From: Actinomycetota bacterium
Lineage (GTDB): Bacteria > Actinomycetota > CADDZG01 > WHSQ01
Direction of reading: 5' to 3'
Assembly (NCBI GenBank): GCA_034663635.1
Contig: JAXDJH010000020.1
Coordinates: 35,215 to 59,214 of the forward strand
Length of the DNA stretch: 24,000 bases
Shown one piece after another: positions 435-23,424 of this stretch. How positions within the stretch are numbered: position 1 is the first letter of the stretch; every line of letters begins with the position of its first letter. The notes under the pieces were generated by a model that did no database searches, was not told where the DNA came from, and saw nothing but the letters and a program-made list of their open reading frames with translations. The position numbers and the translations under genes were made by a program.

Positions 435-950
435 TTAATACCCGTACCCCGAGTCGGAGTCGTTCGTGCTGCCGGAGTCGTCGGTGTAGCCCTTGTCGTA
501 CTTGTTGCCGCCACCACTCCCGCCGTTCGAGCCACCCGCCCCGGCCCCCGTTCCTCCGGCGACGGTGATCGTGCCCATCATCGAGGAGTGGATCTCGCAG
601 TGGAAGGTGACGAACCCGCTGTCGGGGGCCGTCGCGGTGGCCGTAACCGTTTGACCTGGGTCGGCTTTGACGTTCACATCCAAGTCGCCCGACGTGAAGG
701 TGTGTGGAGCCTCGTCTTTGTTGATGAAGGTGATTTCGAACTCGGCCCCCGCCGCAACCTCAACCTCTCGAGGGTCGTAGGCGAAGTTGATCGCCGACAC
801 CGTTACGCCGGAGGTGGCGGCCGGGGCCGAGTTCGAATCGGTAGGAGGCGCTCCACTGCCCGTGTCATCGGCGGCCTTGTCGCCACAGGCCGAAGTGAGC
901 GCCACGATCGCCAGGACGACGAGTGCCCACCTTGTTTTGGATGGAGCCAT
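435..950 (-). CDS. Cupredoxin (plastocyanin/amicyanin-like type-1 copper) lipoprotein with a Gly/Ser/Asp/Tyr-rich C-terminal tail
   Basis: 171 aa. The signal peptide ends in a lipobox-like LTSAC. Copper ligand pattern: His in APHTF, then C-x2-H-x3/4-M in HCEIHSSMMG. An SD (GGGAGG) lies upstream of ATG 950. Confidence 0.75.
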   Translation of the reverse strand: MAPSKTRWALVVLAIVALTSACGDKAADDTGSGAPPTDSNSAPAATSGVTVSAINFAYDPREVEVAAGAEFEITFINKDEAPHTFTSGDLDVNVKADPGQTVTATATAPDSGFVTFHCEIHSSMMGTITVAGGTGAGAGGSNGGSGGGNKYDKGYTDDSGSTNDSDSGYGY

Positions 951-2275: not shown

Positions 2276-2671
2276 TCAACTCTGGGTAGCACACACCTTC
2301 TTGGGGGGCGATTCGTAGACCCAAACGACTGTGCTGATGATCTCCGCGGAGGGCACGCCTTTCTCCAGGTAGGCAGTGGCACACCGCGAGATGGCGCGTG
2401 CTGCCATCGTCGCGTCGTTGAAGGCCGACAGCATCAATATGCGCGTGCCGGGGGAGGCTTCATGGAGAAGAGGGATCGCTTGAAGCCCGTCCATGCGCGG
2501 CATGGAGACATCCAGCAGGATCACATCTGGCCGCGTCTCGCGCGCGATCTGTACCGCTTCGACCCCGTCGCCCGCTTCGCCGACAACTTGGAACCGAGGT
2601 TCGGCGAGAGCCAATCGGAACAACTCTCTCAACGCAGGGACGTCGTCGACGATGAGCACCCGTATGGGCAA
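2276..2671 (-). CDS. Stand-alone response-regulator receiver (REC) protein with no output domain
   Basis: Receiver signature: IRVLIVDD, DVILLDVSMPRMDG (phospho-acceptor Asp), ILMLSAF, YLEKG. I chose TTG 2671 as the start because a perfect AAAGGAGG lies 5 nt upstream. The track ORF starts at an upstream TTG (2722). Confidence 0.8.
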   Translation of the reverse strand: MPIRVLIVDDVPALRELFRLALAEPRFQVVGEAGDGVEAVQIARETRPDVILLDVSMPRMDGLQAIPLLHEASPGTRILMLSAFNDATMAARAISRCATAYLEKGVPSAEIISTVVWVYESPPKKVCATQS

Positions 2672-2757
2672 CGCCGCCTCCTTTCTGACAAGATGATGAG
2701 CACGGAAGGCTTCGCGGAGCAATACGCTTTATTGGAGGGCCTTTCCCGGGAGGGTGG

Positions 2758-4080
2758 ATGCAGGCCGTAGCCGACGCATTTCAGTACGTAAACGCCGCTG
2801 CGTTCCTTTTTCTTGGTTTGCTTGGGGCCCGCGTCTGGATGAGGCGCCACGATAGCCAGAGCGCGTGGATGAGCCTTACCTTCGGGATCCTGGGCGTTAT
2901 CGCCATCATCGGTCTCGTCCAGCCCGAGAAGGTTGAGTCGGATCTTGGGCAGCTCCTCCTCAAGTTCGAGATCGGGGTGCTGCTTCTCTTCCCGTACTTC
3001 CTCTATCGCTTCGCCGCGAGCTTCGACCCCCCGTCGCGAAGGACGGAATATCTGGCCGCGATCGTTACGGGTATCGCCATCATCTGGCCCTTCTTCCTCG
3101 GGGGCAACATCCCGCAACAGGGTGAAAGGCAGACGACTGAGTGGCGTATCTACATTCTGGTGTTGCTCTTCCAGTGGACCTTGTTGTCGATCCTGGCAGC
3201 GGTTCGATTGTGGCGTGGGGGGGGTGATCTTCCCGAGGTGGCGCGTCGTCGAACCCACCTGCTGAGCATCGCGACGCTCCTATTGAGTGTTGTGATCATC
3301 ATCTCGGGGTCCAGCTCGTCCGAGCCCGCGCCCGAGGTTCAGGTGATCACGGCAGGCATGACCCTTGTTGCGGCCCTCGCCTTCTACTTCGGTTTTTCGC
3401 CGCCAAGATTCGTTCTCATGGTTTGGCGACGACCGGCTCAGGACGCGCTTTACCGGGCCGTCACGGATCTCGTGAGCGCGGAGACCGAGCAGGACGTCAC
3501 CTCGTCGTTGTTGCCGCACGTGACCGACATCATCGGGGGCCGGGCCGTTGCCTTGGTCGAGAGAGAGGAAGTGATCCTCGACGCGCACGGTGCGACCCAA
3601 GAGATGCTCGATCACGTTCCCGGCCTCCTGAACGACCCTCAAACCCAGAGGGAGGGCGTCATCGTCGTTCCTTTGACATTTGCGACCGTCATCGTTTGGA
3701 CCAGCAGGTTCGCTCCTTTCTTCGGCGAGGAGGAACTCGAGCTCGTCAAGACGCTGGGTACCCTCGGACACTTCGCCTTGGAACGGACCAGGGCCACGCG
3801 TTTGAAGGCCGATCTGGCGGAAGCACAGAGGAGACGCGAGCAGGCGCTCCAGATCAACGACAACGTCGTGCAGGGTCTCGCCGTGGCGAAATACTCATTC
3901 GAGATGGGTCTTCAGGATCGCGGGATCGAAGCGATCGACAAGACCCTTTCGGCCGCGCGGTCGATCATCTCCGACCTTCTCGAGGAGATCGGTGGGGACA
4001 CGAACCTCGAGGCCGGCGCGTTGATCCGCCACGAACCTGCAGGCTTCGATCCCGAACGTTCTGCGGAGACCGGCTCCTGA
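2758..4080 (+). CDS. Polytopic membrane sensor-like protein: about 6-7 TM helices, a GAF-like domain, and a degenerate HisKA_3-like dimerisation helix with no HATPase domain
   Basis: 440 aa. The N-terminal half is hydrophobic. The middle has a GAF-like end pattern (VIVVPLTF...FGEEELELVKTLGTLGHFALERTR). The C-terminus reads QINDNVVQGLAVAKYSF...AIDKTLSAARSIISDLLEEIG, which follows the HisKA_3 pattern ELHDxVxQxL with Asn in the His position. The protein ends about 70 aa later with no N/G1/G2 boxes. Confidence 0.6.
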   Translation: MQAVADAFQYVNAAAFLFLGLLGARVWMRRHDSQSAWMSLTFGILGVIAIIGLVQPEKVESDLGQLLLKFEIGVLLLFPYFLYRFAASFDPPSRRTEYLAAIVTGIAIIWPFFLGGNIPQQGERQTTEWRIYILVLLFQWTLLSILAAVRLWRGGGDLPEVARRRTHLLSIATLLLSVVIIISGSSSSEPAPEVQVITAGMTLVAALAFYFGFSPPRFVLMVWRRPAQDALYRAVTDLVSAETEQDVTSSLLPHVTDIIGGRAVALVEREEVILDAHGATQEMLDHVPGLLNDPQTQREGVIVVPLTFATVIVWTSRFAPFFGEEELELVKTLGTLGHFALERTRATRLKADLAEAQRRREQALQINDNVVQGLAVAKYSFEMGLQDRGIEAIDKTLSAARSIISDLLEEIGGDTNLEAGALIRHEPAGFDPERSAETGS

Positions 4081-4127
4081 CCCTCGACCGCAAGTTCCTC
4101 GACCGATTCGATCGGCTTCGCAAGGAG

Positions 4128-5162
4128 ATGTCCGAACGAGGCATCGATCACCTGTGGGTCGAACCCTCGGTCGGGTTCCTCTATCTCACTGGTCTCGAAC
4201 CGATAAGCGTGGAGCGGATCACCGCATTGCTGATCCCGGCCGATGGGGACCTTCGTCTTCTCGTTCCACTGATGCTTGCGGAGGAGTGCGAAGTCATCGG
4301 AGCAGAGGCAGTGACCTGGGACGACACGGAGGGTCCCGACGCAGCGGTAGGTCGCATCTTGTCCGGCATCAAAACCTTGCACGTCCAAGGTTCGCTTCCG
4401 ACATGGGCGATGTTCGCGTTGCAAGCAGCGGCTCCTGGCACCACGATCGATCTCGATCCGGGAACGCTCGAGCGACTTCGCGAGATAAAGGACGACTCCG
4501 AGATCGAAGGCCTGAAGGTCTCCGGCGCGACGACCGACGGCGTTATCTCGTGGATCGAGACGATGCCACCCGCCGGTCTGACCGAGGTGGCTCTGGGGAA
4601 GCGGATCCAGATGCGTTACCTCGAGCTCGGTGTTGTGCCGACGGACATGCCGCTCGTTGCGTGGGGCGCGAATGCAGCGATGCCTCATCATGCCGGCGGC
4701 GACGTCCTGATCGAACCCAACGCCCCCCTGCTCGTGGACATCGGATGTCGCGTCGATGGCTACTGGTCTGACATCACTCGCGTCTACTTCCCCGAGAACA
4801 CCTCATCCGAGATCAACGGTGCCTTCGATGTGGTTTGCGCGGCACATGACGCGGCCCTGGCCTCAGTGGCGGTGGGCGTTCCTTGCTCCGAGGTTGACCG
4901 CGCCGCGCGCGCAGTGATCGAAGAAGCGGGACTGGGAGAGCGCTTCGTGCACCGGACCGGCCATGGCCTGGGCCTCGAGATGCACGAAGCTCCCTACATC
5001 AGAAGCGGTAACGAGCAGTTGCTAGAGGTCGGTCACGTGTTCAGCATCGAGCCGGGCGTCTATCTGCCCGGGAAGTTCGGGTTACGTTTCGAGAACATCG
5101 TCGCGGTGACCGCAGATGGTCCGCTCGTTCTTAACCAAGCCGCCCGCAGGCACAAGCTCTAG
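4128..5162 (+). CDS. M24B family Xaa-Pro aminopeptidase/dipeptidase
   Basis: Metal-ligand and signature blocks: VDIGCRVDGYWSDITR, HRTGHGLGLEMHEAPYI, GHVFSIEPGVYLPGKFGLRFENIVAVT. The first ATG is 4128, but N-domain-like sequence continues upstream to a CTG at 4077, so the start is uncertain. Confidence 0.85.
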   Translation: MSERGIDHLWVEPSVGFLYLTGLEPISVERITALLIPADGDLRLLVPLMLAEECEVIGAEAVTWDDTEGPDAAVGRILSGIKTLHVQGSLPTWAMFALQAAAPGTTIDLDPGTLERLREIKDDSEIEGLKVSGATTDGVISWIETMPPAGLTEVALGKRIQMRYLELGVVPTDMPLVAWGANAAMPHHAGGDVLIEPNAPLLVDIGCRVDGYWSDITRVYFPENTSSEINGAFDVVCAAHDAALASVAVGVPCSEVDRAARAVIEEAGLGERFVHRTGHGLGLEMHEAPYIRSGNEQLLEVGHVFSIEPGVYLPGKFGLRFENIVAVTADGPLVLNQAARRHKL

Positions 5163-6098: not shown

Positions 6099-6887
6099 AT
6101 GGGGCGGGTCCTGGCGATCGCATGTCTTTTCTTCGCGCTCTTGGTTCCGGCCGCGTCCGGCGTCGACTCCTGTCGCGGCCATCCAGTCACGATCGACGGA
6201 ACTCGTGACGGCGACAACATCCAGGGAACGCCGGGCGACGATGTCATCTCGGGCGGACCCGGTGCCGACAGGATCCACGGTCTCGGGGGCCGCGACGTGC
6301 TCTGTGGCGGGGGAGGAGCCGACCTCCTCGACGGAGGCGATGGGGACGACCTTGTATTTGGTGGCGAGGGTGGGGACACGATCGATGGAGGCACGGGCGA
6401 CGATGTCTTGTCGGGTGAGGAGGCCAACGACGGTCTGACAGGTGGAGCGGGATTCGACGTCGTTCGCTATGGACGAGCTCCGTCTGCGGTGATCGTTGAT
6501 CTGAAAGACGGAACGGCATCGGCACGTTCCGGTGGTGGCACCGGGGCCGACACCATCCTCGAGGTCGAGGGCGCTTACGGCTCGTCTTTCGACGACCTAC
6601 TGATCGCCGGACCGGAGGGCTCTTTCCTCGTCGGCAATCGGGGAGCGGACGAGGCCATCGGCGGGCCGGGACCGGACCGAATCTTCGGAGGTCAGGGGCG
6701 TGACGATCTGATCGGTCGCCTCGGCCCCGACGAGTTGACCGGCGATGACGGCGCGGATCGGATGCGAGGCTCCGGAGGAGCCGACGCTCTCATCGGCGGT
6801 TCGGGCAACGACATCGTGGACGGCGGTAAAGGCCGAGATGATTGCGACGGGGGACCGGGTGACGACCGTTTCATCGACTGCGACTGA
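6099..6887 (+). CDS. Secreted hemolysin-type (RTX) calcium-binding repeat protein
   Basis: Sec-type signal peptide (MGRVLAIACLFFALLVPAASG). Two blocks of GGxGxD nonapeptide repeats (GGPGADRIHGLGGRDVLCGGGGADLLDGGDGDDLVFGGEGGDTIDGGTGDD... and GGPGPDRIFGGQGRDDLIG...GSGGADALIGGSGNDIVDGGKGRDDCDGGPGDD). They are separated by a VIVDLKDGTA...GADTILEVEGAYGSSFDDLL linker typical of such proteins. Confidence 0.85.
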   Translation: MGRVLAIACLFFALLVPAASGVDSCRGHPVTIDGTRDGDNIQGTPGDDVISGGPGADRIHGLGGRDVLCGGGGADLLDGGDGDDLVFGGEGGDTIDGGTGDDVLSGEEANDGLTGGAGFDVVRYGRAPSAVIVDLKDGTASARSGGGTGADTILEVEGAYGSSFDDLLIAGPEGSFLVGNRGADEAIGGPGPDRIFGGQGRDDLIGRLGPDELTGDDGADRMRGSGGADALIGGSGNDIVDGGKGRDDCDGGPGDDRFIDCD

Positions 6888-7326
6888 GCCCGCGCGGCTC
6901 TCATCCAAGGGCCGCCGGATCCGGCTGATGGCGACGGCTCTCGTCGGCATCGCGCTGCTTCTGGGCGCGGCCTTCGGCAACGATGACAACTTCCCCTTTG
7001 GTCCGTTCCGGATGTACTCGACGACGAACGATCTCGACGGGACCGTCAATGCGGTGAGGTTCTATGCCGTCGATTCCGAGGGCCGAGAGCTCACTCCAAG
7101 GTCGCAAGACTTCGGATTGAGACCGGCCGAGGTGAATGGTCAGGTAGCCCGTTTCCGAGCCGATCCCGATCTGCTCGGTCGACTCGCCGAGGCCTACGTG
7201 AAGGCCCATCCCGACGCGGCACCTCTCCGCGAGCTGACTCTCGGATACGGGATCTGGACCTTGGAGGGCGGACGGCCGGTCGCCTACCGGGAGGAAAAGC
7301 TCGTCACGTGGAGGACGGAGGCATGA
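6859..7326 (+). CDS. Hypothetical small signal-anchored/secreted protein, translationally coupled to the downstream HTTM gene
   Basis: GC3-rich frame. A basic segment (SSKGRRIR) precedes the hydrophobic helix MATALVGIALLLGAAFG, followed by a soluble domain of roughly 115 aa. Start is either GTG 6859 (a GGGGGA SD-like tract 4 nt upstream, 29-nt overlap with the RTX gene) or ATG 6928. The stop overlaps the next start (ATGA at 7323-7326). Confidence 0.55.
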   Translation: MTTVSSTATEPARLSSKGRRIRLMATALVGIALLLGAAFGNDDNFPFGPFRMYSTTNDLDGTVNAVRFYAVDSEGRELTPRSQDFGLRPAEVNGQVARFRADPDLLGRLAEAYVKAHPDAAPLRELTLGYGIWTLEGGRPVAYREEKLVTWRTEA

Positions 7327-8189
7327 GCTCGGTTGGGGAGCGGCTGTCCGAGTGGTGGACGATGCCGATCGCGCGCGGCCGTCTCGCGGCGCTTCGGACG
7401 ATCCTGTATCTGTTCGTTTTCGTCGATGTGCTGGTGACCACCTCGTGGGTTGCTCGACACGCGCTGGTGCCGGGAGATCTCTACCAACCCCTGTTCTTAG
7501 CTCGCTTCTTAGGCCTCCCTGAACCTGAAGGCATGGCGGTAACCGCCATCGAGATCTTGCTCTTAGTCACTGCCGCGGTCGCTGCGAGTGGACGTTCGCC
7601 GCGCGTTGCGGGGGCCGCGGTCTTCGTCCTCTATCTCGTGTGGATGTTCATCGGCATGAGTTACGGCAAGGTCGACCACGACCGGTTCGCGTTCCTTGTC
7701 GCGCTGGCGGTTCTTCCCACAGCTCCGAAAGCTAGATGGGGCGATCAGACTCCGGATGAAGCCGCGGGCTGGGCGATCCGCTGCATCCAGGTATCGGTGG
7801 TCGCGACGTACTTCCTTGCCGCGTTCGCGAAGTTGAGGTTCGGGGGGCCGGGGTGGGTTAATGGAGCGACCTTGATGCGGGCAATCCTCCGGCGCGGAAC
7901 GTCCTTGGTCGAGTGGCTGAAGAGCTCACCTTGGGTCCTGAGGATCAGCCAGTACGGGATCGTGGCCTTCGAACTGTTGTCGCCCTTGATGTTGCGCCGC
8001 GACCGGATCGGAAAGGCTTTCGTGCTCGCGGCGTTCATGTTCCACATCGTCACGTACGCGTCCATAACGATCGTCTTCCTGCCACACGTGATGTGCTTAC
8101 TCGCATTCCTCCCGCTGGAACGCATCCCATCCCCTCTGGAAGCATTGAGACGACGTTCTTCAGGTTCGGCGGTCTTGACGGAATCTTGA
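7323..8189 (+). CDS. HTTM-domain polytopic membrane protein (vitamin K-dependent gamma-carboxylase-like / SdpB-like family)
   Basis: 288 aa with about 8 hydrophobic helices. The layout follows the HTTM pattern: an N-terminal R..LAALRTILYLFVFVDVL helix, YQPLFLARFLGLPEP, then a loop with YGKVDHDRFAFLVALAVLP, then W-containing AGWAIRCIQVSVVATYFLAAFAKLRFGGPGWVNGATL. Assigned by eye only. Confidence 0.6.
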   Translation: MSSVGERLSEWWTMPIARGRLAALRTILYLFVFVDVLVTTSWVARHALVPGDLYQPLFLARFLGLPEPEGMAVTAIEILLLVTAAVAASGRSPRVAGAAVFVLYLVWMFIGMSYGKVDHDRFAFLVALAVLPTAPKARWGDQTPDEAAGWAIRCIQVSVVATYFLAAFAKLRFGGPGWVNGATLMRAILRRGTSLVEWLKSSPWVLRISQYGIVAFELLSPLMLRRDRIGKAFVLAAFMFHIVTYASITIVFLPHVMCLLAFLPLERIPSPLEALRRRSSGSAVLTES

Positions 8190-8234: not shown

Positions 8235-8714
8235 ATGGCAATCGCAAGGGATCTCTCTTCAAGCGCGGTCATGGTGCGAGCGACCGAACGGATGGGCTTC
8301 GTCGACCTGACGGAGGAACTCGTCGATGCAGTCACGTGGTCGGGCATCGAGGACGGCTTCTGCCTGGCCTTCTCCACGCACACGACCTGCGCTCTCGTGG
8401 TGAACGAGTGGGAGGACGGAGCACGCGAGGACTTCGTCGCGCGGCTCCGAACTCTCGTTCCCCAAGAGACTTACTACGCCCACGATGATCTCAGCCGGCG
8501 TACTCAGAACCTCGTCGAGGACGAGCGGAGCAACGGGTGGTCTCATGTGGTGGCGATGCTGATGGGTGGCTCGTCTCAGGTGATCCCCGTTGTCGACGGT
8601 CGTCCGGCCCTCGGGCGCTGGCAACGCCTGATCCTCGTCGAACTCGACGAGCCTAAGGATCGAACGGTGCTGTTCCAAGCCTTTGGCTCGGGACCGTCCC
8701 TACACTTGAGCTAG
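8235..8714 (+). CDS. yjbQ: YjbQ/UPF0047 family protein (secondary thiamine-phosphate synthase-like)
   Basis: Family-typical blocks: FVDLTEEL, HTTCALVVNEWEDG, NGWSHVVAMLMGGSSQVIPVVDGRPALGRWQRLILVELD. Confidence 0.8.
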   Translation: MAIARDLSSSAVMVRATERMGFVDLTEELVDAVTWSGIEDGFCLAFSTHTTCALVVNEWEDGAREDFVARLRTLVPQETYYAHDDLSRRTQNLVEDERSNGWSHVVAMLMGGSSQVIPVVDGRPALGRWQRLILVELDEPKDRTVLFQAFGSGPSLHLS

Positions 8715-9391
8715 TGAAACAGCGCTCGGTTGCCGTGATAGAGGACGAGGCCACGATCGCGTCGTCGATCGCCGCCCGGCTTCGCAAGGAGGGCTTCTCA
8801 GTTGAGATCGCCGTCGACGGGCCGAAGGGCGTCGAGCTCAGCGACCGGATGAAGCCGGATCTCGTCATCCTCGATCTGATGCTTCCGGGACTCGACGGCC
8901 TCGAGGTGTGCAGACGCATCCAGCGTGAGCGCCCGGTGCCGGTTCTCATGCTCACCGCCCGAGACAGCGAGACCGACATGCTCGTTGGGCTCGGCATGGG
9001 GGCCGACGATTACATGACCAAGCCGTTCTCGCTCCGTGAGCTTGTGGCGCGCGTCCACGTCCTGCTCCGCCGCGTTGATCGTGCGCCGAATCCACCGGGT
9101 GCCCCGATACGGATCGAGGAGGTCGAGATCGATCCCGGCCGCCGTCAGGTGTCCAAGAAGGGCGAGGTCATCCACCTAACGCCGATCGAGTTCGACCTCC
9201 TCTACAAACTCGCGTCGAGGCCGGGCATCGTCTACTCGCGCGAGCAACTCCTCGGCGAGGTCTGGGGCTACCGAGATGACTCGAGCGCACGCACGGTCGA
9301 CACGCACGTTGGATCGCTTCGGCGGAAACTCGGCTCCGATCTGATCCGGACCTCTCACGGCGTGGGGTACGCGTTCCGCTCAAACCGATGA
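8714..9391 (+). CDS. OmpR/PhoB-family response regulator (REC + winged-helix DNA-binding domain)
   Basis: GTG 8714 overlaps the yjbQ stop (TAGTG). Receiver blocks: VAVIEDE, DLVILDLMLPGLDG, LMLTARD, ADDYMTKPF. Winged-helix blocks: LTPIEFDLLYKLA...REQLL..VWG....RTVDTHVGSLRRKL. Confidence 0.9.
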   Translation: MKQRSVAVIEDEATIASSIAARLRKEGFSVEIAVDGPKGVELSDRMKPDLVILDLMLPGLDGLEVCRRIQRERPVPVLMLTARDSETDMLVGLGMGADDYMTKPFSLRELVARVHVLLRRVDRAPNPPGAPIRIEEVEIDPGRRQVSKKGEVIHLTPIEFDLLYKLASRPGIVYSREQLLGEVWGYRDDSSARTVDTHVGSLRRKLGSDLIRTSHGVGYAFRSNR

Positions 9392-10389
9392 GGCCGCTGG
9401 ACCCACTGTCGTCGATCAAGACCAAGCTGGGCGTCTTGATCGTGTCGGCCGTCGGAGTGACTGTCGTTGCGATCGTGATCGGCGTGCGGATCGGCTCGCC
9501 CAAATGGTTGACCGGAGGGCTGGCCGCGATCCTCGCTCTAGGCATGGTGCAGTTCCTCGCGAGAGGGATGACATCGCCGCTGCGTGAGATGGCGGCGGCC
9601 GCTCGAGACATGGCCCGTGGCGACTACACGAGGCGTGTGAGCGCTTCCTCTCGAGATGAAGTCGGAGAGCTCGGGCGCGCTTTCAACAAGATGGCCGCGG
9701 ATCTCGCCGAGGTCGACCGGATGCGCAAGGACCTCGTCGCGAACGTCTCGCACGAGCTCCGCACGCCGATCAGCGCCCTACAGGCGGTGCTCGAGAACAT
9801 GATCGACGGCGTCGAACCACCCGATCCCGCGACGCTGCAAACGATGCTGACGCAGGTGGAGAGACTCGGTCGGCTCGTCTCTCAGCTCCTCGACCTATCG
9901 CGCCTCGAGTCCGGCGCGATCCCAATCGACGTTCGCCCGTTCGAAGTGGGGACTCTTCTCGAGCAAGCGGCCGCGGAGTTCAAGCTCGGCTCCCAGCGCG
10001 CCTCCGACAAGAACGTCCGTCTCGATGTGATCCTGCCGGAGGCAGGTCTGACTGCAACCGGAGACGCGGAGCGCGTTCATCAGGTCGTCGCCAATCTCCT
10101 CGATAACGCGGTCAGGCATTCGCCCGAAGGGGGAGTGGTCGGCTTAACCGCGACGGAAGACGACGGAGGCGTGCGCATCGAGGTGCGTGACGAGGGGCCC
10201 GGGATCCCAGAAGGCGAAAGGGAACGGATCTTCGAGCGTTTCTATCGGTCCGACAGCGCGCGGGCCGGTGGGGGCTCCGGGCTGGGCCTCGCTATCGCTC
10301 GTTGGATCGTCGATATGCATGGAGGCGAGATCAAGGCCGAGAACGCCGATCCCAGTGGCTGCCGGGTGGTCGTCCGCTTGCCCCGCTAG
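9388..10389 (+). CDS. Sensor histidine kinase (two TM helices with a roughly 7-residue external loop, HAMP, HisKA, HATPase_c)
   Basis: ATGA overlap with the regulator gene. H-box SHELRTPISAL, N-box LLDNAVRHSP, G1 VRDEGPGIP, G2 GGSGLGLAIARWIV. Confidence 0.9.
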   Translation: MRPLDPLSSIKTKLGVLIVSAVGVTVVAIVIGVRIGSPKWLTGGLAAILALGMVQFLARGMTSPLREMAAAARDMARGDYTRRVSASSRDEVGELGRAFNKMAADLAEVDRMRKDLVANVSHELRTPISALQAVLENMIDGVEPPDPATLQTMLTQVERLGRLVSQLLDLSRLESGAIPIDVRPFEVGTLLEQAAAEFKLGSQRASDKNVRLDVILPEAGLTATGDAERVHQVVANLLDNAVRHSPEGGVVGLTATEDDGGVRIEVRDEGPGIPEGERERIFERFYRSDSARAGGGSGLGLAIARWIVDMHGGEIKAENADPSGCRVVVRLPR

Positions 10390-11450: not shown

Positions 11451-11603
11451 ATGACCGACACCGAGAAGAACGAGACCGAAAGCACCGACGGCCCGGGCGG
11501 CGTGACCATCGACGAGCCAACCGATCCCGCCTTGACGGGAACGGACTCGGACGACTTCGGTGAGGAAGCTCCGGAACCGGGAGTCGGGTCGGACGATTCC
11601 TAG
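11451..11603 (+). CDS. Candidate small acidic protein (50 aa: MTDTEKNETESTDGPGGVTIDEPTDPALTGTDSDDFGEEAPEPGVGSDDS)
   Basis: It is not in the ORF track because it is under 60 aa. A strong SD (AAGGAGG, 11437-11443) lies 7 nt upstream of the ATG. Codons are GC3-rich. It fills an otherwise empty gap. Confidence 0.4.
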   Translation: MTDTEKNETESTDGPGGVTIDEPTDPALTGTDSDDFGEEAPEPGVGSDDS

Positions 11604-13552
11604 AGGGGCCAGCGCGGCGTCGTCAAAGTGAGCCACCTCGGGATCTGGTCGGCGGGCATCGGACGACTTTTGTAGAACCCCTGCGCGTAGTCACACCCGA
11701 GTAGCTCGAGCTGACGCCAGACGGCCGCCGTCTCGACCCCTTCGGCGACGACCCGAAGCCCGAGGTTTCGGCCCAGGTCGATCGTGGATCGCACGATCAC
11801 GGCGTCGCTCTCGTCGACATCCATGTTCATCACGAATGACTTGTCGATCTTGAGTTCCTTGACTGGAAGCTTTCGCAGATGTCCGAGGGACGAGTAGCCC
11901 GTTCCGAAGTCGTCGATAGCCATATCGACGCGCATCTGAGACAGGCGAGCCAGGATGCTCATCGCCCTGATGGGATCGTGCACCAGCGTGCTCTCGGTGA
12001 TCTCGAGTTGCAGACAGCCCGGCGGGAGACGCCACTTGCGCAGCAGGCGCTCGACGTGATCTGGGAAATGAAGATCGAGGAGGTTACGCGGCGACATGTT
12101 CACCGCGACGGTCAGATCGATCCCCTGATCCCTCCAGGCAGCCACCTGGCGGAGGGACTTGTCGAGCACGTACATCGTCAGTGGTTCGATCAACCCGGTG
12201 TGCTCGGCGATCGGGATGAATTCTGCCGGCGGGAGCACGCCTCGCATCGGGTGGTCCCAACGAACGAGCGCTTCGACCACGATGGCTTGACCGGTTTTCA
12301 GATCCACCTTGGGCTGGTAGTGGAGGATGAACTCCTCGTCATCGATCGCCCGGCGGAGCTCCGCGACGAGCGCGAGGCGGGACGGCGAGTACTGGTCGCG
12401 CTCGGCCGTGTAGATCTCGCATCCCGTGCCTGCCGCTTTTGCGAGGTACATCGCGACGTCGGCTCGTTGTAGGAGCAGGTCGACGTCTTTGCCGTGGCCG
12501 GGGAAGAACGAGATACCGATGCTCACTCTCACATCGAGGGCCATGCCCTCGACCACGAATGGATGATGGAAGGCCTCGCGGATCTTCTCGGCGACATTGA
12601 GGGCCGCTACAGGGTCCGGGATATTGGGCAGAAGGATCGCGAACTCATCGCCACCGAGTCGGGCGACCGTGTCCGTTTCACGCAGAGCTTGTTCGAGCCG
12701 TCTCGCGATCTGTTGAAGGACGAGATCGCCTTTGTGATGCCCGAGCGTGTCGTTGATCTCCTTGAATCTGTCGAGGTCCATGAGCATCACGCCCGCGATG
12801 AGGTCCTCGCGCTCGGCCACGAGCAGTGCCTGATGAACACGGTCGTGGAACAGTCCGCGGTTGGCAAGACCGGTCAGGACGTCGTGGAAGGCTTGATACG
12901 CGTTGTAGTCGGCCTGCGTCCGAAGTTTGCGCGATGCGTCGGCCACGATCCGGAACACCGCGAGGTAGAGCAGGAAAAGGCCACCGATAACGACGAGCAT
13001 CAGTTGGCGCGAATCGGTCCGGATTGCCCCGGCCAGCGGTTCGTAGGGGAGCGAGATCTCGACCACGCCCGAGGGCGCCGACCCCGGATCGAAGCGAAGT
13101 GGGACGAAGACGTTGAGGACCTCCATAGCGGTGTCCCCACTGCCCGTCCAGCCGGTGATGGCTTGTGACTCGCCGGCAAGCGCCCCTTCGAGTGAGGGCT
13201 CGTTTTCGGCCCTTTGACCGATGAGAGATGAGTCGCCGGAGTAAACGACCTTGAAGTTGCGGTTCATGATCTTGTAATCCGCCACGGAACCCTCGATCAG
13301 GGTTTCGCCTCGGAGGGCCTCTTCGAGAGCTCGGGATTCGCTGCTAGACAGCCCGGACTCGAGGTTCCCTTCGGTGATGTGGGGTTGGATGCCGAGTTGC
13401 GCGCCCACTTCGACGCTTTGCTTCGCGCTGGCGATCGCGCGCTCACGGATGAAGGTATTGAGGATGTGGTTCAGCACCAGCCCCAGCAGCAGCATGGGGA
13501 CGGCGCTCATCAGACCGAATTTCGCCAGAAGGCTAAGTTTTCGCACGATCAC
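11600..13552 (-). CDS. Membrane-bound GGDEF-EAL protein (diguanylate cyclase/phosphodiesterase) with a periplasmic sensor domain between two TM helices
   Basis: GGDEF domain with intact RLGGDEF and an RxxD (RETD) 5 residues upstream. EAL domain with EALVRW, QLEITES, DDFGTGYSSL, ELKIDKSF, VAEGVET, QGFY. Confidence 0.9.
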   Translation of the reverse strand: MIVRKLSLLAKFGLMSAVPMLLLGLVLNHILNTFIRERAIASAKQSVEVGAQLGIQPHITEGNLESGLSSSESRALEEALRGETLIEGSVADYKIMNRNFKVVYSGDSSLIGQRAENEPSLEGALAGESQAITGWTGSGDTAMEVLNVFVPLRFDPGSAPSGVVEISLPYEPLAGAIRTDSRQLMLVVIGGLFLLYLAVFRIVADASRKLRTQADYNAYQAFHDVLTGLANRGLFHDRVHQALLVAEREDLIAGVMLMDLDRFKEINDTLGHHKGDLVLQQIARRLEQALRETDTVARLGGDEFAILLPNIPDPVAALNVAEKIREAFHHPFVVEGMALDVRVSIGISFFPGHGKDVDLLLQRADVAMYLAKAAGTGCEIYTAERDQYSPSRLALVAELRRAIDDEEFILHYQPKVDLKTGQAIVVEALVRWDHPMRGVLPPAEFIPIAEHTGLIEPLTMYVLDKSLRQVAAWRDQGIDLTVAVNMSPRNLLDLHFPDHVERLLRKWRLPPGCLQLEITESTLVHDPIRAMSILARLSQMRVDMAIDDFGTGYSSLGHLRKLPVKELKIDKSFVMNMDVDESDAVIVRSTIDLGRNLGLRVVAEGVETAAVWRQLELLGCDYAQGFYKSRPMPADQIPRWLTLTTPRWPL

Positions 13553-13611: not shown

Positions 13612-14847
13612 TTATACCGGGCTATTACCGGACAAATCTGATGAGGAGGACCGGACGTTGAGCAGAGCGAGAACCCCGATGACTGCAACGATCAGGTTGC
13701 GTGCCAGCAGAACCATGAGACCCGGCAGATTGCCGGTTCGGGTGCCTCCTTCGAACAACGGCTGGATCACTTCGCCGATCGTGTACGGGAAGACGATCTG
13801 CGTGAGACCTGCAACGACGAGCACGAGCAGAAGCGGGATCAATGCTCGGGTCGAGCGCGGCCAGCAAGCAGCTACGGCGGCCAGCGCGACCAGCCAGATC
13901 CCGTACTGGGGCGAAAACACGGTGCCGAAGAACATGAGCAGGGCCAGGATCCCGTAGAGCCCAAGCGCGAGCGTCGGAACGTCGTCACGTTCGATCTTCC
14001 GGTGCACGAGGAACGTGCCCGCCACCAAGGCGATCAGAGAGCCGCTCAGCGCGAGGTTCTTAAGGAGCGAACCGGCAGTCGAGATCACCTCGTACGCGCC
14101 AAATCTGATCGTGACGAATATCGCATAGCCGAAGCGACTCGCCAGCAGCAGGAAGCCTCCCCACGTGCTCTCGATCTGGATGCCGCGCAAGCCGTGGTAC
14201 TGAACTACATCGCGCATCAGGTCTGGACCCGCCCCCGTGATGAAGATCGGGATCACAAGGGCCGCGACTATCGCCACGCATCCGAGCGCGAACGATCGCT
14301 TGCGCGGCGAAGCGACGAAGGTCGCCGGGATAAGGAACGCGGGGTAGACCTTCGCGGCCGCTCCGAAACCAAGGAGGGCGCCGGCGGCCGACCACGCTCC
14401 GACCGAAGCACGTTCCACGGCCCAGATCGTCGCGACCGCCGGAAGGAGATCGAGGCGCAGGTAGATGATCGGACCGAGCAGTAGACCGCCGAGGATCCAT
14501 AGGGCGGGGCCGATCCATGAGCCGTATCGATGAGCGAGGACGATCACTCCCGCGAACCCGATCAGGTCGACGACGGTCATCAGCCAGACGAACCGGTCCC
14601 GGTAGGTGTCGCCGGCGAAGCCCAGGACCTTGGGGGCCGCGATGAAAGGGAGAGACCCCGGCGGGTACTCGATCTCGATGTCCTTATAGGCGCGCTTGTC
14701 TCCGTCGATTAGGTCGTTCGCCCACGATTCGTATTTCCCGACATCACCCGAGGTCGCGATATTGATCGGGCGGAATGCAGCGGCTGTTGTGAAGATGCGG
14801 CAGGCGATGAATGCGATGCCCAGGATGACGAGCGTGCGTCGACTCAC
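13612..14847 (-). CDS. Polytopic membrane glycosyltransferase-like protein (GT87 / DUF2029, PimE-like GT-C fold)
   Basis: About 10-11 TM helices. It has an early loop IEYPPGSLPFIAAP typical of DUF2029/GT87. I placed the start at GTG 14847 because it forms a GTGA overlap with the ligase stop and gives a basic N-terminus (VSRRTLV) before TM1. Alternatives are ATG 14889 and the track start at 14979. Confidence 0.6.
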   Translation of the reverse strand: MSRRTLVILGIAFIACRIFTTAAAFRPINIATSGDVGKYESWANDLIDGDKRAYKDIEIEYPPGSLPFIAAPKVLGFAGDTYRDRFVWLMTVVDLIGFAGVIVLAHRYGSWIGPALWILGGLLLGPIIYLRLDLLPAVATIWAVERASVGAWSAAGALLGFGAAAKVYPAFLIPATFVASPRKRSFALGCVAIVAALVIPIFITGAGPDLMRDVVQYHGLRGIQIESTWGGFLLLASRFGYAIFVTIRFGAYEVISTAGSLLKNLALSGSLIALVAGTFLVHRKIERDDVPTLALGLYGILALLMFFGTVFSPQYGIWLVALAAVAACWPRSTRALIPLLLVLVVAGLTQIVFPYTIGEVIQPLFEGGTRTGNLPGLMVLLARNLIVAVIGVLALLNVRSSSSDLSGNSPV

Positions 14848-15932
14848 GACCTCGTTCGGCCGCGCGGCATGATCTGGTCGAAGCGACATTCCTCGGGAGG
14901 CTTGTCCGGTCGCCAGCGTTGGAATCTGGCCGCGTGGCGGAACCGACCGTTCTGGAGATGCTCGTATCGGACCTCGCACGCAAGCACCGGCTTGATGGGC
15001 ACGTAACTCGCGTCTCTACCGGTCATGCCCGTCCACCGACTCGGCCCCCCCGGAGTGCGGCCTCCTCCGAAACTTTCATGGCCTTCGTACTTCTTAAGGT
15101 CCGCGAGCAGCTTCTTACGCTCCGGGGCCTTGAATGACGACGTGTGACCTACGTACTGCAGGACGCCCTCGTCGTCGTAAAGGCCGAGCAGCAACGATCC
15201 GACTCCGTCGTTCGTCTTGTTGATCCTGTAACCGCCCACGACGCAGTCGGCGGTCCGGTGATGCTTGATCTTCAGCATCGCGCGGACCCCGGGCGCGTAG
15301 ACCTGATCGGTCTTCTTGGCGATGACTCCATCGAGCCCCGCGCCCTCGAACACCTCGAACCAGAACTCCGCGATCTTCGGGTCTGCCGTCTGCGGAGTGA
15401 TCGCCACGAGGGGGCTCGGTTGAAGCGCCTCGATCACTTTGTCCTCGAGATCGCCGTGGTCTTCCTTCGGACCGTCTCCGGGTAGATGGACCGCATTCGC
15501 AAGGAGCTCCTCGAGTCGAGCCCGCCGGGTGTCGAGCCGCGCCTCGCGCAGATCTTTCTTCCCTTCTGAGAGGAGGTCGAACGCGACGAAGGATGCTGGA
15601 GTTGTCTCGGACAGCATCTTCACGCGCGACGCCGCGGGATGGATCCGCTGGAGGAGTCGGTCGAAGTCGAGACCTTCCTTCATCGGCACCACGATCTCGC
15701 CGTCCAACACGCAGGCTTTCGGGAGCGAGTCGGCAAGGGCCGCCTCGACCTCCGGGAAGTATCGGTTCAAAGGCTTGAGGTCCCGGCTGTAGATGGTGAC
15801 GTCGGACCCATCCTTGAAGACGACCGCCCTGAAGCCGTCCCACTTCGGCTCGTAGACCCAGTCTCCAGTGGGCATCCCCTCCGAGACCTTGGCCAGCATC
15901 GGCTCGATGGGAGGGTCGAAGGGCAGCGCCAT
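14844..15932 (-). CDS. Stand-alone ATP-dependent DNA ligase (LigC / LigD-ligase-domain type)
   Basis: Motif I YEPKWDGFR (adenylated Lys), LDGEIVV, GLDGVIAKK, MLKIKH, plus a C-terminal OB-fold region. Start candidates are ATG 15932, 15941 and 15944. The track start at 16019 adds non-homologous residues. Confidence 0.85.
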   Translation of the reverse strand: MALPFDPPIEPMLAKVSEGMPTGDWVYEPKWDGFRAVVFKDGSDVTIYSRDLKPLNRYFPEVEAALADSLPKACVLDGEIVVPMKEGLDFDRLLQRIHPAASRVKMLSETTPASFVAFDLLSEGKKDLREARLDTRRARLEELLANAVHLPGDGPKEDHGDLEDKVIEALQPSPLVAITPQTADPKIAEFWFEVFEGAGLDGVIAKKTDQVYAPGVRAMLKIKHHRTADCVVGGYRINKTNDGVGSLLLGLYDDEGVLQYVGHTSSFKAPERKKLLADLKKYEGHESFGGGRTPGGPSRWTGMTGRDASYVPIKPVLACEVRYEHLQNGRFRHAARFQRWRPDKPPEECRFDQIMPRGRTRS

Positions 15933-15966
15933 GGGGTACATCATCCCTTCGATGAGCCTCACGAAT

Positions 15967-16980
15967 ATGCAGCTAGCGGAACTCTGTGCGATCGGGGCCG
16001 AACAGTTCACCGAGAACAAGGAGAAAGCCCTCCGCAGGACGTCTCGGAAGGCCCTTCAATGGCCCGAGGAGGCGGCGAAGATCGCGTCCGACGGGCGCTC
16101 ATTGCGTGAACTGGACGGGGTCGGGCCGTGGGTCGCGGCCCAACTGGACGCTCTCCTTAACGAGCCGCCGGAGGAGATCCCAGAGCCACCCCCGATCAGA
16201 GCCGGCTTCGAGTCGTTCGCCGCTTCAAGGGAGCTGCTCGCCACAGAGCCGGCTCGCCGGCGTGACATCAAAGGCGATCTCCAGATGCACACGCGCTACA
16301 GCGACGGCCGGGCATCGATCCGCGACATGGCGAACTCGGGCATCGAACTCGGTTACGACTACATCGCGATCACCGACCACAGCAAGGGTCTGAAGATCGC
16401 CGGCGGCATGGACGAGGACACGCTCGCGAATCAGGGGGCCGAGATAGACGACGTCAATGGCGAGCTGGACGGCTTCCGTGTTCTGAAAGCGTTGGAGATG
16501 AACGTCAGTCCCGACGGGAGCGGCGACATGGAGCCCGATGCCCTCTTGAGTCTCGATCTCGTTCTGGGCTCGTTCCATTCCAAGCTGCGGATCAAGGAGG
16601 ATCAAACGGAGCGCTATCTGAGCGCGCTGCGCAATCCCTACGTTCATGTCCTCGGTCACCCGAGGGGGCGCATCTTCAATTTCAGATTGGGACTGAGTGC
16701 CGATTGGCCTCGGGTGTTCGAGGAGGCCGCTGCACTCGACAAGGCGGTCGAGATCGACGGATTCCCTTACCGGCAAGACCTGAACGTCGGGTTGCTAGAG
16801 CTTGCTCGTGAGTCCGGTGTTCGTATCTCGATCGGAACGGACGCGCACAACGAGGCCGAGATGCAATACATCGAGGTAGGAGCTGCGGCGGCGCTCGCTG
16901 CGGGGATCCCGACGGATCGGATACTGAACTACAAGCCGGCCGACGAGATCCTGGCCTGGACGGATTCGCTCAAGCCTTAG
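15967..16980 (+). CDS. PolX-like protein lacking the polymerase core: N-terminal 8-kDa/HhH-like segment fused directly to a PHP phosphoesterase domain
   Basis: PHP motifs: GDLQMHTRYSDG, AITDHS, ALEMN, LGSFH, VLGHP, IGTDAH. The N-terminus has an HhH-like LRELDGVGPWVAAQLDALL. Only about 105 aa precede the PHP domain, too few for palm, fingers and thumb. Start is uncertain (ATG 15931, 15952 or 15967). Confidence 0.75.
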   Translation: MQLAELCAIGAEQFTENKEKALRRTSRKALQWPEEAAKIASDGRSLRELDGVGPWVAAQLDALLNEPPEEIPEPPPIRAGFESFAASRELLATEPARRRDIKGDLQMHTRYSDGRASIRDMANSGIELGYDYIAITDHSKGLKIAGGMDEDTLANQGAEIDDVNGELDGFRVLKALEMNVSPDGSGDMEPDALLSLDLVLGSFHSKLRIKEDQTERYLSALRNPYVHVLGHPRGRIFNFRLGLSADWPRVFEEAAALDKAVEIDGFPYRQDLNVGLLELARESGVRISIGTDAHNEAEMQYIEVGAAAALAAGIPTDRILNYKPADEILAWTDSLKP

Positions 16981-19013: not shown

Positions 19014-19190
19014 TCAGCTTGAAGAGACGACGGGGCCGTGTTTGCGGCAGCGCGCTTCGTAGCCTTGCGGGGTGACCTGGACGTCTAGCTTTCGGCCACA
19101 TTCTTTGCAGAACCTCGGAGGATCTAAAGGACGTCGGCAGGACCCGTCACATTCGTCGGCCGGTTTTCCGCATCCTTGGCAGAACAACAT
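19014..19190 (-). CDS. bsaP: Biotin synthase auxiliary protein BsaP-like small Cys-rich protein (58 aa)
   Basis: The start ATG shares one base with the bioB stop (TGATG), and GAAGG lies 7 nt upstream. The core PPRFCKECGRKLDVQVTPQGYEARCRKHG matches my recollection of the conserved core of the small protein encoded downstream of mycobacterial bioB (Rv1590/BsaP). It also has an extra N-terminal CQGC-x6-C-x3-C. Confidence 0.7.
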   Translation of the reverse strand: MLFCQGCGKPADECDGSCRRPLDPPRFCKECGRKLDVQVTPQGYEARCRKHGPVVSSS

Positions 19191-20191
19191 CAGATGACCT
19201 TCGAGAGCACTCCGATCGGCATCCGGAGATCGTCCAGCATCTGAAGGTCCTGCTGTGGCTTGCGGCCGAGCGTCGTCAGGTAATTGCCGACGATCAGCGC
19301 GTTGATCCCCGCCGTCATCCCCATGGCCTGGAGTTCGCGCAAGGTCACCTCGCGGCCCCCGGCGTAACGCAGGATGACCTCGGGTAGCGCGAGACGGAAC
19401 AGTGCGATCCACTTGATGGCTTCCAGCGGCTTGACGAGGTTGCGGTCTCCCAACGGAGTGCCGGGCCGGGGGTTGAGGAAGTTGAGCGGCACCTCCGCCG
19501 GCTCGACATCGCGGAGCTGGCTGAGCAGTTCGATGCGTTGTTCGTCCGTCTCGCCCATCCCCAGAAGCGCGCCGCAACAGAGCTCCATCCCGACCTCGCG
19601 CACGAGCATGCACGTCTCGAAGCGCTCGTCGAACGTGTGGGTGGTGACGATCTCAGGGAAGAACGAGCGGGAGGTCTCGAGGTTGTGGTTGTAGCGGTGC
19701 ACCCCGCCCTCGGCGAGGCGCTTCGCTTGATCGCGATCGAGGATGCCGAGGCTCGCCGCGACGTTCAAGCCGGTCTCGGCTTTCACGAGCTGGGCCGCCT
19801 GGATGACGTTGTCGACGACTCGATCATCGGGGCCGCGCAATGCCATGACGATGCAGAACTCCGACGCTCCGAGCTCGGCCGTCTCGCGAGCCGCCGACAG
19901 GATCTGATCCATGTCGAGGTAGGGAGTCGGCCGAACCACGGTGTCGAACTTCGACGACTGTGAGCAGAAATGGCAGTCCTCAGGGCAGCCGCCCGTCTTG
20001 GCCGACAGGATCCCTTCGACCTCGACCTCCGGCCCACAGCGAGCGAGTCGCACTTCGTGGGCGGTTGCGGCGAGGGCGGGCACCGAGTCGTCGGGCAGCG
20101 CGGCTAGCTCGCGCAACTCGTCGAGGTCGAGGTCTCGGCGTTCGTCGATCAGGGCGCGGGCCGCGCCCTCGAGCAGTGCTCGGGTGGTCAT
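19190..20191 (-). CDS. bioB: Biotin synthase (radical SAM)
   Basis: CPEDCHFCSQS radical-SAM CxxxCxxC. Full-length BioB-like sequence (YNHNLETS, LCCGALLGMGE, NFLNPRPGTPL, RYAGGRE). Confidence 0.95.
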   Translation of the reverse strand: MTTRALLEGAARALIDERRDLDLDELRELAALPDDSVPALAATAHEVRLARCGPEVEVEGILSAKTGGCPEDCHFCSQSSKFDTVVRPTPYLDMDQILSAARETAELGASEFCIVMALRGPDDRVVDNVIQAAQLVKAETGLNVAASLGILDRDQAKRLAEGGVHRYNHNLETSRSFFPEIVTTHTFDERFETCMLVREVGMELCCGALLGMGETDEQRIELLSQLRDVEPAEVPLNFLNPRPGTPLGDRNLVKPLEAIKWIALFRLALPEVILRYAGGREVTLRELQAMGMTAGINALIVGNYLTTLGRKPQQDLQMLDDLRMPIGVLSKVI

Positions 20192-23191: not shown

Positions 23192-23199
23192 CGCCGGGG

Positions 23200-23205
23200 A
23201 CCCTA
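23200..23205 (-). promoter_or_regulatory. Candidate -10 box TAGGGT, 8 nt upstream of the bioA ATG (possible leaderless bio operon transcript)
   Basis: The minus strand reads TGTCATAGGGTCCCCGGCGATG. This is a TANNNT match with no SD. Confidence 0.3.
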
Positions 23206-23260
23206 TGACATGGCGGGAAGGGGAGCGGGGGCCGGGGCGTTTATCCTGCGTTGCCAGCCT

Positions 23261-23332
23261 GGCGGCGTGGCCGAGTGGTTTAGGCAAGGGACTGCAAATC
23301 CCTGCACAGCGGTTCGATTCCGCTCGCCGCCT
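23261..23332 (+). tRNA. tRNA-Cys (anticodon GCA)
   Basis: Cloverleaf by eye: acceptor GGCGGCG/CGCCGCC, anticodon stem AGGGA/TCCCT with loop CTGCAAA, T-arm AGCGG-TTCGATT-CCGCT, discriminator T. CCA is not encoded. Confidence 0.9.
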
Positions 23333-23424
23333 CAAAGCCCGCATTCTTTTCCACGGTGCAGGACCTGAGGCCTCGGAACATGGAAAAGAGTGCGCCTAGC
23401 CGCGTTGGTAGACTCGGCGACCCT

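Follow-up and report, generated by a model that had tools for sequence, protein, structure and literature searches.

We analysed a two-gene locus at positions 2276-4080 of a 24,000-nucleotide stretch of the genome of an Actinomycetota bacterium (the window; GenBank assembly GCA_034663635.1, contig JAXDJH010000020.1, positions 35,215 to 59,214 of the forward strand), in which a putative membrane sensor and a single-domain receiver are encoded divergently. In the list of open reading frames (ORFs) of the window, the sensor gene occupies 2758-4080 on the forward strand and encodes 440 amino acids (aa), and the receiver gene occupies 2276-2722 on the reverse strand and encodes up to 148 aa. The sensor consists of seven transmembrane helices, a GAF-like domain, a helical hairpin that lacks the phospho-accepting histidine, and a short tail, and it has 66 full-length relatives; the receiver is a single NarL/CheB-like domain. 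The sensor start codon, ATG at 2758, is preceded by GGGAGGG. The receiver start codon, TTG at 2722, is uncertain, and the receivers of relatives are called at 130-158 aa; the divergent intergenic region (2723-2757, between the two starts) is short, and longer if the receiver starts downstream of the TTG.

An AlphaFold2 (AF2) model of the sensor, computed with a 66-sequence alignment, reaches a predicted local distance difference test score (pLDDT) of 89.5 and a predicted template modelling score (pTM) of 0.78. In the model, residues 1-213 (2758-3396, forward strand) form seven transmembrane (7TM) helices resembling HisKA_7TM, from H2-30 to H192-213. Foldseek matches of this membrane part in the PDB are 7TM receptors, at weak scores, and 17 of the 66 relatives have weak Pfam matches to PF16927 HisKA_7TM (best E 1.2e-3); the same 7TM module is also present in true HisKA/HATPase kinases. 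Residues 225-322 (3430-3723, forward strand) follow as a small alpha/beta domain with a GAF-like fold, judged from the AF2 secondary structure. The best PDB matches of this domain by Foldseek are GAF domains, again weak (the GAF domain of KdpD, 4y2f, E 0.022, TMt 0.58; 3ci6, E 0.036), and the cytoplasmic part also returns phytochrome GAF-plus-helix modules, weakly. Neither the window sensor nor the 66 relatives match GAF, GAF_2 or GAF_3 in Pfam, nor does NCBIfam return such a match on the window sensor, so that the membrane/GAF label given to the protein in the initial annotation holds for the predicted fold only.

The C-terminal part is a two-helix hairpin that AF2 predicts confidently as a single chain (H324-382 and H386-411). 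Helix alpha-1 (residues 324-382, 59 residues; 3727-3903, forward strand; pLDDT above 90) runs as a signalling helix into an H-box-like segment. Its a/d heptad pattern, read from the sequence, is unbroken and places N367 at a core position. In the AF2 model, a turn of three residues leads to helix alpha-2 (residues 386-411; 3913-3990, forward strand), which reads T-L-x-A-A-R-x-I-I-S-D-L-L and whose T, L, A, R and L-L are at least 90% conserved in an 85-sequence domain alignment that includes other architectures (alignment A2). The tail that follows (residues 412-430; 3991-4047, forward strand) is predicted to be disordered (pLDDT ~50) and carries the motif L-x-P-G-D-L-V-R-x-x-P-A, in which G, L and R are at least 90% conserved in A2. 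Placed where the linker to an ATPase domain would be, this conserved tail may be a short binding motif.

Conservation and descent of the hairpin

The nucleotides at 3850-3879, cag atc aac gac aac gtc gtg cag ggt ctc, encode Q365-I-N367-D368-N-V-V-Q372-G-L, and the codons of N367 (3856-3858), D368 (3859-3861) and Q372 (3871-3873) lie exactly where the initial annotation had placed them. In the core motif N367-D368-N369-V-V-Q372 (3856-3873, forward strand), Asn replaces the phospho-accepting His and the D-x3-Q pair is kept. A search of 5.8 billion proteins found ~70 clusters of full-length relatives (424-457 aa, 36-81% identity), all of them from Actinomycetota metagenome-assembled genomes and none with a Pfam domain. 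The motif stretch is the most conserved part of the sensor in the 66-sequence alignment: I366, N367, D368, N369, V371, Q372, L374, A375, A377 and Y379 are invariant in the 66 full-length relatives, and A, N, D, V, Q and G are invariant in A2. D368 and Q372, the pair that had been described as a retained HisKA_3 phosphatase motif, are thus invariant in both sets, and a motif so constant at 36-81% overall identity lies well outside what chance would give.

The claim that the sensor has no catalytic ATP-binding domain also held. Its stop codon (4078-4080) lies ~30 residues past the second helix and is directly followed by an M24 peptidase gene, which leaves no room for such a domain; reading the 3' end of the sensor gene revealed no remnant of one after the hairpin, and HATPase_c (Pfam) is absent from all 66 orthologues, which end at the same place. 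The locus of an 80%-identical relative of the same length (L086) is syntenic, with genes for a cupredoxin, an extracytoplasmic function (ECF) sigma factor, an anti-sigma factor, the divergent receiver, the sensor and the M24 peptidase. The loss of both His and ATPase domain is therefore, by these alignments, a conserved family trait and not a recent truncation, in line with the initial view that the system is not a decayed one. More distant relatives share only the 7TM-GAF sensor, which is then followed by HisKA plus HATPase_c and sometimes by a receiver; in others a PAS domain is inserted ahead of the same hairpin. Since the hairpin sits where HisKA and HATPase sit in paralogues with the same sensor, it occupies the place of the kinase transmitter.

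The hairpin is not confined to this sensor. We scanned one genome per species (185,579 species) for the patterns [EQ]INDN[VI]VQ or GLAVAKY[AS][FM], which yielded 252 stretches; 210 of them were confirmed relatives, and 80 were kept as loci for analysis. All 80 are from Actinomycetota (Marmoricola, Nocardioides, Solirubrobacterales, Acidimicrobiia, Nitriliruptoria and others), and most match residues ~340-430 of the query only, the hairpin standing there in other architectures. These include PAS-PAS-hairpin-receiver proteins of ~600 aa, a PAS-hairpin-receiver-HisKA-HATPase protein (L073), a receiver-hairpin protein (L021) and small membrane proteins of ~200 aa. An exhaustive phmmer search with the 90-residue domain of the window sensor against 1.84 billion representatives returned 696 clusters (50% identity) at E<=1e-3. 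In a Pfam census of 144 of the cluster representatives, the accompanying domains were PAS (43), receiver (20), HAMP (8), ETR1_N (7), GAF (6), dCache (5) and MASE1 (4); HATPase_c occurred in only 5 of the 144, each time with a separate HisKA behind the receiver.

Whether the hairpin descends from HisKA_3, as the initial annotation proposed, has to be decided through its relatives. That annotation had set a hidden Markov model (HMM) search beforehand as the test on which its reading could fail, and the window sensor, taken alone, does not score as HisKA_3. The picture differs in the wider family. Of the best 145 among the 696 representatives, 122 have N at the Asn position and 10-12 (~8%) have H, while Q and S occur in 2 each. 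Members of the His type, which likewise have no ATPase domain, match the window domain across the whole library at E 1e-9 to 1e-14, and all ten tested match PF07730 HisKA_3 (E 7e-5 to 0.04; 15-23.7 bits; model positions 1-57), a model of length 68 with a gathering cut-off of 24 bits. Four of eight Asn-type members tested match it as well (P0417, E 8e-4; P0381, 0.011; L044, 0.023; L043, 0.034), with a fifth, P0442, at E 0.19. Across the census, 33 of 144 representatives match HisKA_3 at E<=0.05, and no other family of the dimerisation and histidine phosphotransfer (DHp) domain matches in that region. In 13 of 13 matches examined, H or N falls on position 10 of the HisKA_3 model, which is a single register, and the family members that match PF07730 are 40-57% identical to the window hairpin. 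By transitive homology we conclude that the hairpin is a diverged HisKA_3 DHp. The initial call of a HisKA_3-like helix pair thus stands through the PF07730 matches of relatives in one register, and not through the window sensor, which itself scores nil. In the strict sense the hairpin lies outside HisKA_3, whose score threshold, His and ATPase domain it all lacks.

Independently, hhalign of the domain profile to HisKA_3 profiles chose the same register, with N367 falling on His, D on D and Q on Q, at P 0.03-0.08 and ~1% probability; these profiles (NarX, NarQ, UhpB, DesK and Pfam-labelled Nocardioides kinases) were shallow (Neff 2.8-3.9) and consisted mostly of close orthologues. Against the HisKA paralogues, helix 2 alone was aligned (P 0.014). 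NCBIfam gave no HisKA_3 match on the window sensor, and a local HMM built from collected HisKA_3 sequences was too weak to be useful.

The His-type members that lack the domain for catalysis and ATP binding (CA domain) are P0326, P0327, P0344, P0355, P0359, P0361, P0371, P0416, P0430 and P0443, the last with a MEDS sensor domain; such members could be Spo0B-like phosphotransferases or evolutionary intermediates. Small proteins combining ETR1_N, a membrane domain like that of ethylene receptors, with the hairpin occur in L033 (2178-2774), L043 (5401-6264) and L044 (5668-6282) and as P0359, P0416 and P0430. Downstream of the ETR1_N-hairpin genes of L043 and L044 lies a sensor-less receiver-HisKA-HATPase gene, as it does for the small hairpin proteins of L060 and L082. 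A split ethylene- or copper-type sensor system in Actinomycetota, made of an ETR1_N-hairpin protein and the downstream kinase, is a possible explanation of this layout. Hairpin-receiver gene pairs stand in tandem in L072 (3092-4003 and 5914-6747) and L079 (3002-4564 and 5026-6966), which points to local duplication of the module.

The receiver and its association with the hairpin

The receiver matches Pfam Response_reg at E 1.4e-26 over residues 22-132 and contains no other domain. As the initial annotation had stated for this divergently encoded receiver-only protein, all phosphorylation residues are present (D26, D27, D71, S99 and K121, numbered from the translation; the codon of the phospho-acceptor Asp71 lies at 2510-2512 on the reverse strand). 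The same holds for its relatives: 70 of 70 distinct hairpin-associated receivers keep D26, D27, D71, S/T99 and K121 and also R32 and F101, the last corresponding in our alignment to the lid residue Phe82 of DesR. On this conservation, hairpin-associated receivers are in all likelihood true phospho-receivers.

A receiver is fused or adjacent in 66 of 84 hairpin copies at distinct loci, ~38 of them fused and ~28 encoded by a neighbouring gene. The fused receivers are all C-terminal to the hairpin; the adjacent genes lie downstream on the same strand (18), convergently downstream (2), divergently upstream (8, plus the window) or upstream on the same strand (1). The divergent layout of the window recurs in L086, L008, L010, L011, L013, L014, L015 and L020, and in the 7TM-GAF-hairpin subfamily a receiver is adjacent in 12 of 15 loci. 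The proposed pairing of sensor and receiver is borne out by these counts, and calling the receiver an orphan understates it, as its clade is dedicated to the hairpin. Scored against the window receiver, hairpin-associated receivers reach 70-260 bits and other receivers of the same loci 40-50 bits. With the fused receivers of L024 and L073 the window receiver shares 45% identity, against 27-39% with NarL, UhpA, a regulator of the OmpR type and the receiver that belongs to a HisKA paralogue. That paralogue, a 7TM-GAF-HisKA-HATPase kinase (P0077; L090 4353-6746), has a divergent stand-alone receiver of another type, 39% identical to the window receiver. By sequence, then, hairpin-associated receivers form one class. 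NCBIfam ranks MctR, CheB and NarL-type receivers first for the window receiver, and this NarL/CheB likeness places it in the same partner class that serves HisKA_3 kinases.

In four loci (L043, L044, L060 and L082) the gene downstream of the hairpin gene encodes a receiver-HisKA-HATPase protein without a sensor of its own, and in L073 all parts are in one protein. A kinase behind the receiver has no sensor of its own there, and the signal of the sensor-hairpin protein must therefore reach it by way of the receiver. Mutual information over 66 hairpin-receiver pairs placed the top pairs in the canonical interface regions; with so small a sample, and with phylogeny as a confounder, we do not use the result as evidence.

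Candidate functions of the sensor

The reading that we favour, with a probability of roughly 0.5, is that the sensor is a signal-gated, phosphatase-only transmitter acting on the divergent receiver. A membrane sensor, 7TM plus GAF-like domain, would have as its sole output the His-less and ATPase-less HisKA_3-type hairpin. The hairpin would dimerise into a four-helix bundle with Asn367 in the core, resembling the phosphatase state of DesK in which His is buried; the phosphorylated receiver would dock on the exposed ridge D368-Q372-A375-Y379; and Gln372 would position the water that hydrolyses the acyl-phosphate on receiver Asp71. The 7TM/GAF sensor could gate this activity through the long connecting helix. 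The phosphoryl groups would come from a kinase elsewhere, from the attached HisKA-HATPase in fused or adjacent versions, or from acetyl phosphate or another small-molecule donor. Dimerisation, direct docking, catalysis, gating and the phosphate source are all elements that we infer.

Several observations point in this direction. A heptad reading of helix 1 puts L349, L353, A356, R360, A363, N367, V370, L374, A377 and F381 at core a/d positions and D368, Q372, A375 and Y379 at exposed b/f positions. The latter form the same face as D189, Q193, S196 and L200 of DesK, the residues that contact DesR (PMC5231405). Gln193 of DesK sits where it can position the water for hydrolysis, and the phosphatase state has His188 buried (PMC5231405). 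The phosphatase activity of NarX is described as requiring D-x3-Q, a motif common to CheZ (PMC3510030, citing Huynh 2010), that of HisKA_3 proteins does not need the His (PMC12632262), and the DHp of EnvZ alone is reported to have phosphatase activity (Zhu 2000, as cited in PMC5231405). Phosphatase function is the sole known D-x3-Q-dependent activity of HisKA_3, so that the invariance of N, D and Q after loss of the kinase favours it. Taking the family as a whole, we propose tentatively, at a little under even odds, that the I-N-D-N-V-V-Q hairpin defines a large, hitherto unannotated family of natural phosphatase-only transmitters that derives from HisKA_3, is wired to a dedicated receiver clade and sometimes stands ahead of a sensor-less kinase.

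A number of results weigh against this proposal. Neither the window sensor nor the 66 orthologues match HisKA_3 or HisKA in Pfam, even at E<=10; searches of PDB chains with the sensor, the family profile and the domain profile returned only designed helical repeats, and Foldseek of the isolated hairpin only unspecific helical proteins (E >2). Eighteen of the 84 hairpin copies have no receiver nearby, two or three of them being cut by contig ends. No kinase for the receiver was identified in the window, whose sole histidine kinase (9388-10389) pairs with an OmpR-type regulator. An actinobacterial HisKA_3 kinase with a frameshifted CA domain, ChrS, appeared to be phosphatase-defective in vivo and heterodimerised with its paralogue HrrS instead (PMC9491836), and in DesK the CA domain forms part of the interface with DesR (PMC5231405). 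The phosphatase model alone also leaves unexplained why the residue at the His position is invariably Asn and not just any residue. Finally, the activity is one that we infer from the motif and the genetic link.

Some of the same evidence would suit a non-catalytic pseudo-transmitter, in which the hairpin only binds the receiver, in a signal- or phosphorylation-dependent way, and acts by sequestration or allostery much as DivL does on DivK, possibly with the flow of information reversed. The fusion and adjacency of receivers fit such docking equally well, the layout of sensor-hairpin followed by receiver-HisKA-HATPase works equally with pure binding, and Tyr379 and Ala375, both invariant and exposed, resemble a docking ridge. 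Known pseudo-histidine kinases are described as acting by binding (PMC4211667, PMC12963549), and the CA-less ChrS seems to be without phosphatase activity (PMC9491836). A binding surface, however, needs no absolute invariance of Asp368 and Gln372, the catalytic pair of HisKA_3 and CheZ phosphatases (PMC3510030), and the full phosphorylation chemistry of 70 of 70 partner receivers implies that phosphate turnover matters, with which a reader of the phosphorylation state would still be compatible. On balance we hold pure docking to be less likely, though the main rival. More improbable still is that the hairpin heterodimerises with the DHp of a HisKA_3 kinase encoded elsewhere, as in RocA/CovS or CA-less ChrS/HrrS, the receiver then being the substrate of that kinase. 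Its HisKA_3 descent and the ChrS precedent in an actinobacterium (PMC9491836) speak for such pairing, and HisKA_3 kinases do occur in some related loci (L078, L081). These are, however, the two found in 80 loci, so that such kinases are not recurrently adjacent, and the window has none; the recurrent partner is instead a receiver, often covalently fused, and the kinases that recur next door are of HisKA type and stand behind the receiver.

The failed database searches would be explained at once if the hairpin were a generic coiled-coil or dimerisation element unrelated to histidine kinases, its likeness to an H-box being convergent or coincidental: the window sensor has no Pfam match, the hhalign probability is ~1%, and the Foldseek matches of the hairpin are unspecific. 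We consider this very improbable in view of the 33 of 144 representatives that match HisKA_3 and no other DHp family in that region, the one register in 13 of 13 matches and the ~8% of members with His at the critical position. Moreover, the hairpin takes the place of a transmitter, with PAS, GAF and HAMP domains ahead of it and a receiver behind it, the layout of a hybrid kinase. There is lastly the thought of a decayed two-component system, a truncated or pseudogenised kinase beside its former regulator, to which the absence of His and ATPase domain lends itself at face value. The 66 full-length relatives at 36-81% identity have the same end and an invariant motif, however, and the family extends to 696 clusters; the next gene starts at the sensor stop, and the 80%-identical relative is syntenic and of the same length. 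The conservation data refute decay or truncation, and we reject it.

Comparison with known systems shows where a phosphatase-only transmitter would stand. Like the DHp domains of NarX, DesK and ChrS/HrrS, the hairpin follows a signalling helix, has Asp at +1 and Gln at +5, shares the H-box register R-x-R-x-A-x-E-[LI]-X-D-x-[VI]-x-Q-x-L and has a NarL-like partner receiver. The window sensor differs from them in its Asn for the phospho-His, in the absence of HATPase_c and in a score below detection; the linker to the CA domain is replaced by the conserved L-x-P-G-D-L-V-R tail, and the receivers of the hairpin family have no DNA-binding domain. CheZ (D-x3-Q) and CheX/CheC (E-x2-N) are dedicated phosphatases without kinase activity, as is proposed for the hairpin family, and the acid-plus-amide chemistry placing a hydrolytic water (PMC3510030) would be alike. 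No sequence relationship between these proteins and the hairpin was detected, and CheZ is not linked to a sensor, whereas the hairpin serves 7TM, PAS, GAF, HAMP or Cache sensors as their output and often forms one protein with its presumed substrate. Domain A of EnvZ is likewise a DHp without CA that is reported to dephosphorylate its regulator (Zhu et al. 2000, as cited in PMC5231405), but it is an engineered HisKA fragment that retains His and not a natural protein family.

DivL, PsmA and RocA are kinase-like proteins that still signal without a phospho-His, and DivL reads the state of a single-domain receiver. They keep the CA domain and are of HisKA type, whereas the hairpin family has lost the CA domain and has a fixed substitute residue and an invariant phosphatase motif; in PsmA the phosphatase motif is also missing, and the residue in place of His varies (PMC12963549). 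With its His substituted but its CA domain absent, the sensor is outside the DivL/PsmA class of pseudo-histidine kinases. The CA-frameshifted ChrS of Corynebacterium glutamicum is also an actinobacterial membrane sensor with a HisKA_3 DHp and no CA, but it arose by frameshift in laboratory evolution, keeps its His, is apparently phosphatase-defective and forms a heterodimer with HrrS (PMC9491836), whereas the hairpin family is ancient and conserved. Spo0B and ChpT resemble the proposed hairpin dimer as DHp-like four-helix bundles that act on receivers without kinase activity; they need His for phosphotransfer, and only the ~8% His-type members of the hairpin family could work in this way.

Bifunctional histidine kinases carry kinase and phosphatase activity in one DHp, and the two are hard to separate experimentally. 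A phosphatase-only family with sensors and its own receiver would, if the reading is right, be a clean system for studying the control of transmitter phosphatase activity. It would form a new class among the auxiliary phosphatases of two-component systems, with kinase and phosphatase divided by nature between separate modules, and the known receiver phosphatases would gain a class that is linked to sensors. In our literature searches we came across no account of a natural, conserved family lacking both the His and the ATPase domain. A survey of 2025 found 56 domains without His among 16,025 Pfam HisKA_3 domains (0.3%) and used this against phosphatase activity as a general role of pseudo-kinases (PMC12632262). 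The hairpin family is invisible to the Pfam HisKA_3 model and so bears directly on this argument; if our reading is correct, it would explain the near-absence of His-less HisKA_3 domains in Pfam-based surveys. The annotation of 'orphan' single-domain receivers and of PAS-...-receiver proteins in Actinomycetota would change as well. A Pfam-type model for the hairpin domain is missing, and alignment A2 could supply one.

Other genes of the window

Upstream of the receiver gene lie a cupredoxin gene (435-950, reverse strand) and genes for an ECF sigma factor (923-1597) and a zf-HC2 anti-sigma factor (1590-2273), in an order identical to that in L086. On the other side, the M24 (Xaa-Pro) peptidase gene (4077-5162) begins at the sensor stop codon, and the corresponding pair in L086 overlaps by 4 nucleotides; sensor and peptidase genes probably form one operon, in the window and L086 only. 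Further on lie a gene for an RTX nonapeptide-repeat protein (6099-6887), an unannotated 193-aa ORF (6745-7326) and a gene for an HTTM-domain membrane protein (7308-8189).

The window also has a classical two-component pair, made up of a response regulator of OmpR type (8714-9391) and a kinase with HAMP-HisKA-HATPase architecture (9388-10389); as a partner for the NarL/CheB-like receiver this pair does not suggest itself. A GGDEF-EAL protein of 650 aa is encoded at 11600-13552 (reverse strand), and a GGDEF-EAL gene lies at the corresponding place in L086. An ATP-dependent DNA ligase gene (14844-16019, reverse strand) adjoins a gene for a PHP-domain protein (15868-16980); this pair (14844-16980) looks like a LigD-type module of non-homologous end joining, and at the same place L086 has a LigD primase-polymerase gene. 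A biotin synthesis cluster occupies 19190-23344 on the reverse strand and consists of a BioB-like radical SAM/BATS gene (19190-20191), a 576-aa ORF (20188-21918) whose AAA_26 domain resembles dethiobiotin synthetase, and a gene for a BioA-like aminotransferase of class III (21923-23344).

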